DNA of 64,000 nt from Minisyncoccota bacterium (lineage in GTDB: Bacteria > Patescibacteriota > Minisyncoccia > Phycocordibacterales > UBA9973): contig JBAYUN010000002.1 in assembly GCA_041675085.1 (NCBI GenBank), forward strand, positions 15,967 to 79,966, in the 5' to 3' direction. Positions 10,572-12,668 of this stretch are shown piece after piece (the stretch's first letter is position 1; every line of letters starts with the position of its first letter). Position numbers and translations under genes: made by a program. The notes below the pieces were generated by a model, which did not search any database, was not told where the DNA came from, and saw only the letters and a program-made list of their open reading frames with translations.

Positions 10572-12668
10572 TTAATTAAGCATTTTTAAAAACTCTTGTT
10601 CATTTAGGATTTTTACCCCTAGCTTCTCCGCATTTTTGAGTTTGCTACCCGCTTCGCTTCCTGCTACTACGTATGAGGTATTAGACGAGACTGAGCCTGA
10701 AACTTTACCTCCATGTTTTAATATTTGTTCTTTAGCAATCTCACGAGACATGTTTTCAAGTGTTCCAGTTAATACAAAAGTAGCTCCTGAGAATTTACCC
10801 AATTCCCTTTTTTCCTCTTTTTTAATCACTACTCCCCGTTCTTTTAATTTATCTAGAAAATGTAGATTATTTTTATCGTTCAAAAATTCATACAAACTTT
10901 TTGTAACTGCAGGACCAATGTTTTCTATTTCATTTATTTTCTTTTCCCATAGCGTAGAGTCATGAGAAGCTTTTATTAAACTCTCTAGTGTACCAAAATG
11001 CATAGCTAAATCTCTAGAAGTCTCTTCCCCTACGTGAAGTATACCCAAAGCCCAGATGAATTTTGCAAAAGATATTTTCTTTTTTTCGTGTATTTCTTTA
11101 ATGATATTTTCTGCAGATTTTTCTCCAAAACGCTCTAGGATAGATATATCTTCTTTAGTCAAAGTAAAGATATCAGAAGCATCGGTGATAAGCCCTTCAT
11201 CCTTAAAACGTTTTAAAACCTTAGGACCCAGTTCATAAATATCAAAGACTTTTACAAAGTGTTCTAAATAACGCTCATTTTTAGCAGGACATTTTTTATT
11301 ATTGCAAAAATAAGCCACAGAAGAATTCTCTTGAACAAAAAGATGGTCTGGTTGAGACGAAGGCGACCCGAGGACCTCTTTTTTTCCAAGAGAATTCTTG
11401 TCACCTTTCTTCTCAATCGCTCCTCCACATACAGGACAAACTTTTGGCATTTTAAATTTCCTCTCACGACCACTACGCAGACGATGTAAAACTTCAACAA
11501 CTTTAGGTATCACGTCGCCAGCTTTCTCTATGACTACAGTATCGCCAATACGAATATCCAAACGGTCTATCTGATCCATATTGTGCAAAGTCGCTTTCGA
11601 GACAACAGAACCCGCAACATTTGTAGGTTCAAAAATCGCAAGAGGAGTAAATACTCCAGTTCGTCCTATGTTCACAACAATATCACGCACAACAGTAGTA
11701 GCTTTTTCGGCAGGATATTTATAAGCTACCATATAGCGAGGTGCCTTCCCGACTACACCTAAAGTATTCTGGATTTCTAGATCATCTACTGAGATAACAA
11801 TCCCGTCTGTACCAAATTCAAATTTATCTCTAATCTCAGAAAATTTATTTATAAAATTTTTTACTTCAGATAAATCTTTGCAAACTTTTTCATATTGGTC
11901 GACCTTAAAACCAAAATTCTTTAAAAACTTATGCTTTTCACTATGTGTCTTCAATCCAAGGGATGCCCTTGGATAGTTATCCACAATGTCGAATGTGTAG
12001 AAATCTAGGTTTCTGTCGCGTGCGAGTTTTGGGTCGAGTTGACGGAGACTACCTGCGGCGGCGTTGCGAGTATTAGCAAAAAGGGGTTTGCCTAGTTTAC
12101 CTGCTTTTTTATTTAGCATGACTAAAGTCTTTTTCGCCATCAGGGCTTCTCCTCGGACTTCTAAATATGCAGGAATATTATCCCCTTCAAGCTTTAAAGG
12201 TATTGAAGAAATAGTTTTTAAATTCTCAGTAATATCCTCCCCCACAAAGCCATCTCCGCGAGTAGCTCCGATTTTTAGAATCCCGCGGTCATAAATCAAA
12301 GACACAGCAAGCCCGTCGAATTTCACTTCACAAAAATAATTAAATTTCTTATTCGGCACGAGTTTCTTTACTCTGTTCTCCCATTCTAATAGTTCATCAA
12401 AATCAAAAATATCGTTGAGTGACAGCATTCGCACCTTATGCTCTACTTTTACAAATTTATCGAGCGGTTTACCTCCGACTCTATGAAGCGGTGAATTTAG
12501 ATTATCCAATTCAGGATGATTTTTAAAAATACTCTTTAGTTCGCGAGTCAGAGAGTCATACACAGCATCAGTCACAGTAGCATCATCATGAGTATGATAC
12601 TCTTCTCTGAGGCGAGATATTTCCATCTCCAGTTTTTTCACCCTTTTCTCTATTTCAGTCTTATTCAT
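10572..12668 (-). CDS. ligA: NAD-dependent DNA ligase
   Basis: Adenylation motif [10 protein letters not shown] (KxDG), [16 protein letters not shown], a Zn-finger CPVCGG…[10 protein letters not shown], HhH and a C-terminal BRCT domain. A GC-rich in-frame insert lies inside the Zn-finger. Confidence 0.9.

Follow-up and report, generated by a model that had tools for sequence, protein, structure and literature searches.

The window, by which we mean the whole 64-kb stretch of DNA analysed, contains a hairpin element within ligA, the gene for an NAD-dependent DNA ligase, and a second within pheT, which encodes the beta subunit of phenylalanyl-tRNA synthetase (Table 1). Both host genes are on the minus strand and the cores of the two elements are read in the identical frame. 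The window also encodes type IV pilus/competence-like genes.

In ligA an exact 13-bp inverted repeat, aagaattctcttg at 11321-11333 and caagagaattctt at 11387-11399, and a GC-rich core, tctggttgagacgaaggcgacccgaggacctc (11347-11378), are present as an earlier note on this sequence described them. The repeat extends to 23 nt with two mismatches (11321-11343 and 11377-11399, 91% complementary). On the minus, coding strand the element forms an in-frame insert comprising LigA residues 424-449 (26 residues), placed between the zinc-finger cysteine pairs Cys411/Cys414 and Cys455/Cys460. Alignment with close orthologues, suggested as a check in the same note, reveals the insertion directly: the zinc-finger loop is 40 residues long here, 20-21 in the closest relatives (81-85% identity), which carry no insert, and 14 in the shortest orthologues. 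The insert is the sole segment of the AF2 prediction with pLDDT below 50; it coincides with the low-confidence loop 423-450 and is predicted to be part of a disordered loop.

The pheT core (851-882), which encodes DVLGSSSPQPD, was likewise correctly recognised in the earlier note; it differs from that of ligA at three of 32 positions, a similarity for which the chance expectation is none (no match in 100 shuffles). The hairpin arms of the two copies differ in sequence. Read on the minus strand, the pheT element is in frame as ...EEENTFLDVLGSSSPQPDIQKKHIPSS... and both hairpins fold far better than shuffled sequence (z -3.7 to -4.7). A covariance model built from 119 copies of the family matches ligA at 11327-11393(+) with 73.3 bits and pheT at 831-897(+) with 70.1 bits. 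These are exactly the two copies in the window, all other sites scoring 17 bits or less. A scan of the window at Rfam gathering thresholds returned three tRNAs and no other family, and a permissive scan of positions 11290-11430 (E up to 10) gave just sub-threshold matches to generic miRNA hairpins, with no ribozyme or intron family. A coding palindrome in truB (9119-9156) was considered as a core-less relic of the element and rejected, as comparison with orthologues indicates that it is not an insertion.

Table 1. Hairpin elements, their component parts and the genes concerned, with positions in the window
Feature	Position	Strand	Remarks
Complete hairpin element in ligA	11321-11399	+ (strand inferred to fold)	79 bases
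P1 5' arm, ligA copy	11321-11343	+	AAGAATTCTCTTGAACAAAAAGA; 23-nt inverted repeat
Bulged T, ligA copy	11344	+	Coding-strand A; column 18 of alignment A1
Conserved junction 5' strand, ligA copy	11345-11355	+	GGTC TGGTTGA; invariant A1 columns
P2 mini-hairpin, ligA copy	11356-11364	+	GAC-GAA-GGC; middle pair mismatched (A·G)
Conserved junction 3' strand, ligA copy	11365-11376	+	GACCCGAG GACC; invariant A1 columns
P1 3' arm, ligA copy	11377-11399	+	23-nt inverted repeat
Host gene ligA	10572-12668	-	NAD-dependent DNA ligase, 698 aa
Complete hairpin element in pheT	820-907	+	
5' arm, pheT copy	820-848	+	
Bulged T, pheT copy	849	+	
Junction 5' strand, pheT copy	850-859	+	GTC-TGGTTGA
P2, pheT copy	860-868	+	GGCGAAGAC
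Junction 3' strand, pheT copy	869-879	+	GACCCGAG-GAC
3' arm, pheT copy	880-907	+	
Host gene pheT	535-2364	-	Phenylalanyl-tRNA synthetase beta subunit, 609 aa
Y1/HUH (RAYT-like) gene	4894-5556		39 bits against REP_Tyr_transpos (cut-off 80); the one HUH/Y1 gene of the window

Anatomy of the family

Members of the family are about 70-95 nt in size and share one build, namely a long outer stem (P1), usually a bulged base, a conserved junction and an inner mini-hairpin (P2). The junction, 5'-GGTCTGGTTGA...GACCCGAGGACC-3' on the folding strand, amounts to about 23 nt and is conserved across genomes of 30-59% GC, with an invariance that is in part a product of the exact-match search pattern. The 32-nt core, treated as a unit in the earlier note, is modular: the two junction strands are indeed conserved, but the mini-hairpin that they enclose is variable. 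Nor are terminal inverted repeats the defining feature that the note took them to be, since the arms differ between copies and co-vary, the conserved part being the junction in the middle.

The sequence of P1 varies from copy to copy yet co-varies in the manner of an RNA helix. Pairing is observed in 83.3% of cells compared with 60.0% in shuffles, none of 500 of which reach the observed value; the covariation score is 0.572 against 0.178 for shuffled sequences and 0.155-0.279 for slid controls, and both sides change in 18 of the 21 pairs. Each copy has outer arms of its own, with weak subfamily motifs alone common to several; those visible by eye, for example GAAAC[CT]T, suggest divergence from common arms. 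A bulge is found in most copies (39 bulged A in 37 stems). P2 is represented by 64 distinct sequences of 5-16 nt, with a closing stem of mean length 2.73 bp, compared with 0.66 bp when shuffled. It is often a DNA-type mini-hairpin of form C-GNA-G, frequently GCGAAGC or CCGAAGG, and on the complement strand its loops are most commonly GNA triloops. Loops of the GNA type are a stable DNA mini-hairpin motif (PMC13037366). At one locus, L014, the stem is decayed and the core intact.

Which strand folds? Stem mismatches that become G·T wobbles in one defined strand outnumber the opposite type approximately 10:1, regardless of host-gene orientation. A·C and G·T mismatches stand at 40:10 in one set of copies and 100:8 in another; by context the ratios are 76:13 for sense, 34:4 for antisense and 27:0 for intergenic copies. 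Of 141 copies, 137 fold better as the complement strand under DNA parameters and 134 under RNA parameters, the difference between strands being even larger in the latter case. Because the asymmetry is independent of gene orientation it is one single element strand that folds, and not the host mRNA, to which the folding strand is antisense in about two thirds of intragenic copies. Pairing is thus selected on a single defined strand. The 10:1 asymmetry rules out a cruciform, double-stranded function, and mutation bias is dismissed as its cause because there is no flip with gene orientation. If the hairpin were flipped in place, the result would be exactly the relation seen between sense and antisense copies.

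Distribution and reading frame

The core was sought in related genomes, as the earlier note had advised, and a multi-copy palindromic family emerged, with more than 150 further copies in public data, all from Patescibacteria. Species genomes of GTDB account for 35 loci, with no more than five copies per MAG, and a metagenome scan for at least 119 stretches with the element. Recurrence in independent NCBI, JGI, ENA and Logan assemblies rules out an assembly artefact. Derivation from a conserved rRNA, tRNA or ncRNA segment can also be set aside, since a master gene in every CPR genome predicts thousands of exact matches and the 35 loci found all have hairpin context. Viral contigs, phages and plasmids gave no matches beyond chance, and a phage or plasmid origin was rejected on that basis.

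At least 26 unrelated sites in housekeeping genes are occupied with the frame kept, in addition to intergenic sites. Among the matches listed, 22 of 104 unique metagenome copies (about 20%) are intergenic, filling the gaps between genes exactly, and most copies are intragenic. A long open reading frame runs through all 38 GTDB copies, with no stop codons even in the variable arms, and all 38 use a single codon phase. The same phase is seen in 27 of 31 canonical metagenome copies among the matches listed; the other four break any strictly universal rule. We infer from these open frames that the inserts are probably translated. Candidate peptides diagnostic of translated inserts include VLGSASPQPDHF and QNGLVEAKPTRGPF.

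The proposal of the earlier note, a mobile family that inserts in frame into essential genes in the manner of Rickettsia palindromic elements (RPEs), therefore needs some adjustment. Preservation of the frame and the RPE-like character stand, intergenic copies widen the range of sites, and mobility is suggested by the distribution. The note had also been aware of no such family in CPR bacteria, and our literature search found no published description of the element for this group. This is a previously undescribed family of small CPR hairpin repeats, with one copy in ligA, lying between genes or in frame in surface loops of essential proteins.

Turnover and shared insertion sites

Near-identical whole hairpins are found in non-homologous genes, for example in an mnmA-like gene (L005) and lepA (L009), and presence is patchy even among relatives that are 85-93% identical. 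Loci L044 and L045, with 93-96% DNA identity, are mosaic at the element site; the L044 core is decayed, with five of 30 positions changed and a score of 50.7 bits. L047 is a deletion scar that retains only the arms. Elsewhere the arms are kept while P2 differs at orthologous loci. Close orthologues of Dus (L010 and L012) and of Tgt (L017 and L032) carry, at one site, elements of opposite orientation with unrelated arms. The idea that the outer arms are inverted copies of native flank made at insertion is unsupported by these same-site copies.

Other families, which we call B, C, E and K, are identical in build to that of ligA and pheT. In L006 the PheT site holds the ligA/pheT family; in L041 family C occupies both this site and that of LigA. 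Of 120 LigA orthologues, 65 have a loop of 29-53 residues, and the inserts that lengthen it come from a wide variety of families. Several unrelated families of one build make use of the LigA zinc finger and of the PheT site, both of which are hotspots. Behind such reuse there could be targeting or replacement, and not transposition at random with selection acting afterwards.

Search for mobility machinery

Flanking direct repeats give no sign of target-site duplication, the longest having a mean of 1.82 nt compared with 1.56 ± 0.11 nt in controls, and positional composition gave no clear target motif, conserved flanking tetranucleotide or hairpin-foot tag. Neither a transposase, an autonomous copy nor a parent insertion sequence was encountered in approximately 1.25 Mb of flanking sequence or in the viral, phage and plasmid collections, and the copies compared include no recent insertion for which a pristine empty site could be seen. 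The Y1/HUH gene of the window was considered as a candidate for mobilising the element. It is rejected because it is flanked by its own, different palindrome, which occurs nowhere else, because L039 has the element but not this gene, and because homologues are found at only four of about 155 loci, in two of which they are merely adjacent to the host gene.

Origin of the copies

With a little more confidence than doubt we favour the view that the ligA and pheT inserts are copies of a non-autonomous selfish hairpin repeat, REP/RPE-like, that spread via a single-stranded hairpin and belongs to a wider superfamily in Patescibacteria. Elements of this kind would propagate through a hairpin intermediate of the folding strand, likelier ssDNA than RNA, that a putative trans-acting enzyme would recognise through the conserved junction, and homologous recombination would also carry copies to orthologous sites. 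In compact CPR genomes the survivors would be confined to short intergenic gaps, or to permissive surface loops of proteins at lengths and phases that preserve the frame, and surviving intragenic copies would be translated as disordered inserts of 20-30 residues. Pairing is kept strand-specifically in each resident copy. This is not predicted for simple dead-on-arrival selfish copies, and the fold may be of consequence to the host.

A structured nucleic-acid signal of benefit to the host, with a junction read by a cellular protein and every copy kept by host selection, we consider unlikely. It could take the form of an ssDNA priming (ssi-like) site, a hairpin promoter or a small antisense or non-coding RNA, and several observations are in its favour: one-strand pairing is kept whatever the context, even where the arms are unique to the copy, the junction is conserved over a wide range of GC content, the L014 core has outlasted its stem and intergenic copies fill their gaps exactly. 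P2 of the GCGAAGC/CCGAAGG type resembles motifs known from ssDNA priming sites and phage N4 hairpin promoters (PMC13037366). In 66 of 89 loci the C-rich strand is the one that contains the folding strand (p = 6e-6), but this bias is inseparable from gene orientation (rho 0.76). A host signal is also difficult to reconcile with the patchy presence among close relatives, the decay and deletion of copies, the interchange of many unrelated core families at identical sites, the presence of just two copies in 64 kb and the absence of an Rfam match. Slightly less likely still, in our opinion, is an origin with no dedicated transposition, in which hairpins arise and grow locally by replication template switching (quasi-palindromes), the core is passed from hairpin to hairpin by gene conversion and lineages exchange copies solely through homologous recombination of gene segments that follows natural transformation. 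The number of unrelated host sites, together with the intergenic ones, requires a route to new loci, near-identical whole hairpins are present in non-homologous genes, and template switching alone leaves both the conserved junction and the strand-specific wobble pairs unexplained. These processes would nevertheless fit the lack of a target-site duplication and of a transposase, the L044/L045 mosaic, which represents segment exchange, the use of sites by different families, the retention of arms around differing P2 sequences and the flip-like relation of sense to antisense copies; the type IV pilus/competence-like genes in the window are compatible with them also.

An RNA-level element of the host mRNA, whether mini-intron, ribozyme or translational bypass, would mean that the extra residues never appear in protein. 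The long stem would join both ends of the insert, and ribozymes typically have conserved nucleotides at junctions between helices that vary, yet we find this explanation barely credible: the folding strand is mostly antisense to the message, the wobble asymmetry ignores gene orientation, the stop-free arms of all 38 GTDB copies would be needless if the insert were removed, intergenic copies exist, and Rfam gave no ribozyme or intron match at E up to 10. Beyond the selfish repeat that we favour, a more speculative possibility, doubtful although not negligible, is a new class of strand-specific structured single-stranded element, in which a CPR-specific protein reads the junction between co-varying helices. 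That protein might be a new kind of machinery for hairpin-directed transposition or homing, aimed at existing hairpins in fixed sites of essential genes or replacing them; the element might instead act in ssDNA priming, as a promoter or as a small RNA from within coding sequence.

Implications

CPR/Patescibacteria have highly streamlined genomes, usually called repeat-poor, and a large and diverse superfamily of hairpin repeats is now seen there. These repeats alter the shape of surface loops in core enzymes, among them LigA, aminoacyl-tRNA synthetases, UvrABC, RecG/RecJ, IF-2 and tRNA-modification enzymes; a single site in LigA bears an insert of broadly this type in over half of the orthologues sampled. 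Alignment of protein families, gene calling and structure prediction in CPR are all affected by the inserts, which can also serve as fine-scale markers for recombination between lineages. The anatomy, with its junction, co-varying helices and a single strand able to fold, suggests a single-stranded intermediate and a putative recognition protein, so that the long-open question of mobility becomes testable by phylogenetic profiling and biochemistry.

Comparison with known systems

For REPs, mobilisation is presumed to go through an ssDNA hairpin that an HUH enzyme recognises (PMC3337134, PMC3733652). Like REPs and REPINs, the CPR elements are small imperfect palindromes, many in short intergenic gaps and without target duplications, and a RAYT-like gene is present in the window. 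However, REPs are extragenic, with stems that are conserved within a genome and bear a GTAG or CGTC tag, whereas CPR copies are mostly intragenic and in frame, with variable stems on which no tag was seen; the Y1 gene, with a different flanking palindrome, is unlinked to the element instead of being a RAYT flanked by its own repeat. MITEs are similarly small, non-coding, non-autonomous, multi-copy and patchy, with inverted-repeat ends, but the CPR element has no terminal repeats common to its copies, no target-site duplication and, in the flanking sequence and the viral, phage and plasmid collections scanned, no parent insertion sequence. Derivatives of IS200/IS605 (PATE-like) have two subterminal hairpins, at the left and right ends, with conserved stems and tetranucleotide cleavage sites; the CPR element forms only one hairpin, its stems vary, and no tetranucleotide is conserved in its flanks.

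The attC sites of integrons are recognised as a folded single strand, with structure conserved above sequence, extrahelical bases and a variable terminal structure. The CPR element resembles them in the last three respects and would, on the reading favoured here, resemble them in the first; it differs in being conserved at a central junction, with no cassette context and no R/L boxes (GTTRRRY) seen by eye in the alignment. Mitochondrial genes of Nematomorpha also contain long, near-perfect inverted repeats within functional coding sequence, both arms being translated (PMC6649704), but there each arm codes for conserved portions of the protein itself, no insert being involved, and the repeats form no dispersed family with a common core.

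The closest likeness is to RPEs, short multi-copy palindromic repeats that lie in frame in unrelated housekeeping genes, are apparently translated and coexist as several families (PMC10969869). In common with RPEs the CPR element is a palindrome of many copies (two in the window, up to five per MAG and more than 150 overall), is inserted in frame in housekeeping genes of a reduced genome, apparently as a tolerated peptide, and has coexisting families. RPEs are of about 100-150 bp with sequence conserved family-wide; the CPR element has no whole-element consensus, only the central junction being conserved between co-varying helices. Strand-specific folding, the approximately 20% of intergenic copies and a different host phylum set it further apart from RPEs as described. 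After Rickettsia, it would constitute a second natural case of in-frame selfish DNA, independent of the first and far more extensive.

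Two copies of one hairpin in the window

The earlier note had described a perfect terminal inverted repeat around a GC-rich core in ligA. Both are present and the repeat is longer still, comprising 23 nt with two mismatches (11321-11343 and 11377-11399). As claimed, the same 32-nt core occurs in pheT at 851-882 with three substitutions, encoding DVLGSSSPQPD. The two cores share one reading frame, and zero chance matches would be expected for a second core in the window. The pheT core is enclosed by a long hairpin at 820-907 with arms that differ in sequence from those in ligA. 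Both hairpins fold well above shuffled sequence (z -3.7 to -4.7) and a covariance model identifies exactly two copies in the 64-kb window, scoring 73.3 and 70.1 bits, against 16.7 bits for the next best match.

That third match, not significant, is a hairpin at 51359-51407 outside long ORFs, with 22-nt arms (AAACTCGTCCTTAAATTACAAC / GTTATAATTCAAGGACGAGTTT) and a 5-nt loop. A perfect palindrome in the truB coding sequence (9119-9156, 17-bp arms, 4-nt loop) was rejected as an insertion, there being no extra segment relative to orthologues. Another perfect palindrome, with 15-bp arms and a 3-nt loop, is located at 47512-47544 in an ORF of 219 aa.

Genes of the window discussed here and modules of the element
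Feature	Position or extent	Strand	Remarks
ligA	10572-12668	minus	698 aa; host gene of first copy
pheT	535-2364	minus	host gene of second copy
Y1/HUH transposase gene	4894-5556	minus	220 aa; PF01797, E = 2.8e-7
P1 5' arm	about 20-28 nt	window +	first module of element
Bulged T	after P1 5' arm	window +	usually present
Junction 5' strand	after bulged T	window +	GGTC-TGGTTGA
P2 mini-hairpin	5-16 nt	window +	between the two junction strands
Junction 3' strand	after P2	window +	GACCCGAG-GACC
P1 3' arm	last module	window +	pairs with 5' arm

Overall architecture

Alignment and inspection of copies from GTDB species genomes (GTDB set) and JGI metagenomes (metagenome set) reveal one architecture common to all, in which an outer stem, P1, and an inner mini-hairpin, P2, are separated by two junction strands. 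The sequence of the P1 arms varies from copy to copy with mutual pairing kept. Across 119 non-redundant copies aligned without gaps, 83.3% of P1 cells are paired compared to 60.0% after shuffling (0 of 500 shuffles as high), the covariation score is 0.572 compared to 0.178 shuffled and 0.155-0.279 with partners slid, and both sides have changed in 18 of 21 pairs. P2 occurs as 64 distinct sequences, for example, on the coding strand, GGC-TTC-GCC, GCC-CATAGAAC-GGC, GGTTC-TGATAG-GAACC and GCGCC-GGCAGG-GGCGC. Its closing stem has a mean length of 2.73 bp as opposed to 0.66 bp when shuffled, with a maximum of 1.13 over 1000 shuffles. The conserved part is the junction, an invariance partly imposed by the exact-match searches, and both helices vary freely.

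The core at locus L044 is variant or decayed, with 5 of 30 positions changed and a score of 50.7 bits. Family K, one of the other insert families at the LigA Zn-finger site, has GGTCCTCGG...CCAGACCA in common with the element yet scores only 19.4 bits. In L014 the 3' half of the element recurs as a 36-nt direct duplication (1355-1390, CAACCAGACCATTCAGATAAGCACGCAGACTCGGCT) approximately 170 nt downstream of a full copy; both are in one IleRS gene, where translation of the duplicate adds a second ...QPDHSDKHADSA... segment.

Folding of one strand

Mismatches in P1 are overwhelmingly A·C on the GTCCTC strand and so G·T(U) wobbles on its complement. The A·C and G·T counts are 40 versus 10 in the GTDB set and 100 versus 8 in the metagenome set. 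By context the ratio is 76:13 in sense, 34:4 in antisense and 27:0 in intergenic copies and, since the same asymmetry holds in all three, it is a property of the element itself. Host transcription or a mutation bias tied to gene orientation is thereby ruled out, as is a symmetric role of both strands as a cruciform. Computed with DNA parameters, the complementary strand folds more stably in 137 of 141 copies; RNA parameters favour it in 134. In 66 of 89 loci (p = 6e-6) the folding strand is the one locally richer in C, a tendency inseparable from gene orientation (rho 0.76).

The commonest P2 loops on the complementary strand are GAA, GGA and GCA, closed by C-G, which is the GCGNAGC/CCGAAGG 'mini-hairpin DNA' motif. 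This motif is exceptionally stable in DNA and is known at priming sites on ssDNA and in the hairpin promoters of phage N4 (PMC13037366). On this ground ssDNA is moderately favoured over RNA as the folded species.

Host genes and reading frame

All 38 copies of the GTDB set, at about 26 independent insertion sites, are within long ORFs. The hosts assigned by Pfam are RecJ, RecG, LepA, UvrA, UvrB, UvrC, pol III delta', IF-2, TsaD and Pgk, with IleRS (two sites), PheT, MnmA, Tgt (two sites), Dus, ParB and LigA added by eye. One codon phase of the hairpin is used in 38 of 38, read as QK-VLGSASPQPD-HF in 29 and QN-GLVEAKPTRG-PF in nine, the latter being the exact product predicted for an in-place flip of the hairpin, bulge included. 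Of the two phases left, one is open in both orientations but no copy uses it, and the other acquires a TGA stop on flipping. Among metagenome copies, 27 of 31 canonical ones follow the phase rule, with at least one clear exception (L110); copies with a different P2 length use different phases, and 22 of 104 unique copies fall outside ORFs, filling short intergenic gaps as REP elements do. In-frame insertion, as proposed in the earlier note, is not universal. Given the phase exceptions and the non-ORF copies, in-frame insertion is a survival filter or subfamily trait and not a defining property.

An AlphaFold2 model places the LigA insert (residues 424-449) in a predicted loop at the tip of the Zn-ribbon hairpin; residues 423-450 form the sole segment with pLDDT below 50. 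By eye, the IleRS of the CPR element carriers L004 and L014 has an inserted segment resembling histidine phosphatase/phosphoglycerate mutase (...RYFVMRHGQARSN...).

Hotspots and turnover

The closest relatives of the window LigA (81-85% identity) lack the insert, and more distant ones at 72-74% carry orthologous copies with co-evolved arms. The loop between the Cys pairs is bimodal in 120 orthologues (P0001-P0120), with 14-22 aa in 53 and 29-53 aa in 65. The long loops represent many unrelated peptide families, at least ten (B to L) besides the element, with peptides such as ...NSSALLHPAGGTFR..., ...NSAALPASGLRHGQNF..., ...SSSSKGPR...QTISHRTL..., ...GGKRSGLGN... and FSQSLGSSLRSATPSKKH. At the DNA level, families B, C, E and K are built like the element, with a structured GC-rich core flanked by long, near-perfect arms. 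The PheT site is another hotspot: in L041 family C occupies both pheT (19008-20810) and LigA, with the same core and different arms, and L040 carries yet another insert there.

Loci L044 (occupied) and L045 (empty) share 93-96% DNA identity on both sides of an unalignable Zn-finger segment, which in L045 matches that of distant lineages; the pair is a recombination mosaic. L047 corresponds to L046 minus the hairpin interior, deleted between short repeats in the two arms to leave a palindromic scar. In Dus and in Tgt, close orthologues have copies at one shared site that point in opposite directions and have unrelated arms; the Dus flanks are about 88% identical. Orthologous loci keep the arms and differ in P2, and complete hairpins that are nearly identical are present in different genes, such as an mnmA-like gene (L005) and lepA (L009). 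A few kb downstream of ligA, L045 (8174-9718) and L047 (5881-7203) encode large serine recombinases with Resolvase, Recombinase and Zn_ribbon_recom domains, which suggests that an integrated mobile island adjoins the conserved ligA gene cluster.

Distribution

Beyond the window, scanning one genome per GTDB species for the exact pattern located the core at 35 loci, all in Patescibacteria MAGs of 30 to 59% GC with at most five copies each, and a JGI metagenome scan allowing a variable gap mid-core found at least 119 stretches. Searches of viral contigs, phage records and plasmid records gave only chance partial matches, and Rfam zero family matches.

Several MAGs (L006, L007, L009, L014-L016, L019, L021, L022, L026, L029 and L035) bear the record title 'uncultured Candidatus Saccharibacteria bacterium'. 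In MAGs so titled, LigA and other housekeeping genes are 70-93% identical to Paceibacterota sequences, and this label looks unreliable. Because the Saccharibacteria-labelled LigA P0018 (CAZFSV01) resembles Paceibacterota LigA, with 93% identity to P0008 and 70% to the window LigA (Candidatus Paceibacterota per NCBI), we take the secure host range to be Paceibacteria-like CPR, not several classes.

Search for an enzyme

Is there an enzyme that might mobilize the element? No associated enzyme and no autonomous parent was found, flanking direct repeats (1.82 versus 1.56 +/- 0.11 nt) indicate no target-site duplication, and no clear target motif was seen at the flanks. The window Y1/HUH gene, which scores 39 bits against the REP-associated tyrosine transposase model (cut-off 80), was considered and rejected. 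A palindrome of its own, ACTCTTTAGGC-N3-GCCTCAAGAGT, flanks it on both sides and is present downstream as two tandem copies; neither the rest of the window nor 165 other loci contain this palindrome. The Y1 unit and an adjacent 188-aa membrane-like ORF (4255-4821) are missing from syntenic L039, which carries the element though it lacks the Y1 gene, and of about 155 loci only 4 contain homologues. Gene and palindromes together make 4862-5603 a self-contained IS200/RAYT-like unit. Y1 homologues in two unrelated metagenome contigs (L063, 7951-8649; L112, 625-1317) directly adjoin the element-bearing mnmA-like gene, which may reflect conserved synteny or a preferred integration site.

Interpretation

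The element is a hairpin repeat that is dispersed and modular, folds on one specific strand, turns over rapidly by gain, loss and replacement, and is tolerated both in protein loops and between genes. We lean, with somewhat better than even confidence, towards a selfish non-autonomous element. It would propagate through a single-stranded hairpin, with ssDNA favoured, a putative trans-acting protein would recognize the hairpin at the conserved junction, and homologous recombination would carry the element between orthologous sites. An ssDNA or RNA signal useful to the host would also involve a folded strand, and we consider this unlikely. Local template switching with gene conversion and recombination would dispense with dedicated transposition, and seems rather unlikely. 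An intron, ribozyme or bypass element acting in mRNA is very improbable, since the strand that folds is in most cases antisense to the mRNA and stop codons are kept out of the arms.

Comparison with known systems

The earlier note likened the family to the Rickettsia palindromic elements (RPEs). The likeness is real in that both are in-frame, comprise several families and are translated, as open frames suggest for our element. It fails for the arms, which here are not conserved family-wide, a defining feature of RPEs. With REP/REPINs the element shares intergenic palindromes, absence of target duplication and presumed mobilization as an ssDNA hairpin, but it has no GTAG or CGTC tag and no RAYT gene flanked by the repeat. 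Unlike MITEs it has neither conserved terminal repeats nor target-site duplication and, with a conserved junction and variable helices, its conservation pattern is the opposite of theirs. A 2024 review of prokaryotic MITEs gives RPEs as the most extreme example of insertion in frame and leaves CPR unmentioned (PMC10969869). Full-text literature searches turned up no account of elements like these in CPR, and none of the core or of its peptide, in agreement with the earlier note, which was aware of none for low-GC CPR-like genomes. This is an undescribed palindromic-repeat superfamily, distinguished by its inverted pattern of conservation and by having only one foldable strand, and its host phylum has no earlier reports of such elements.
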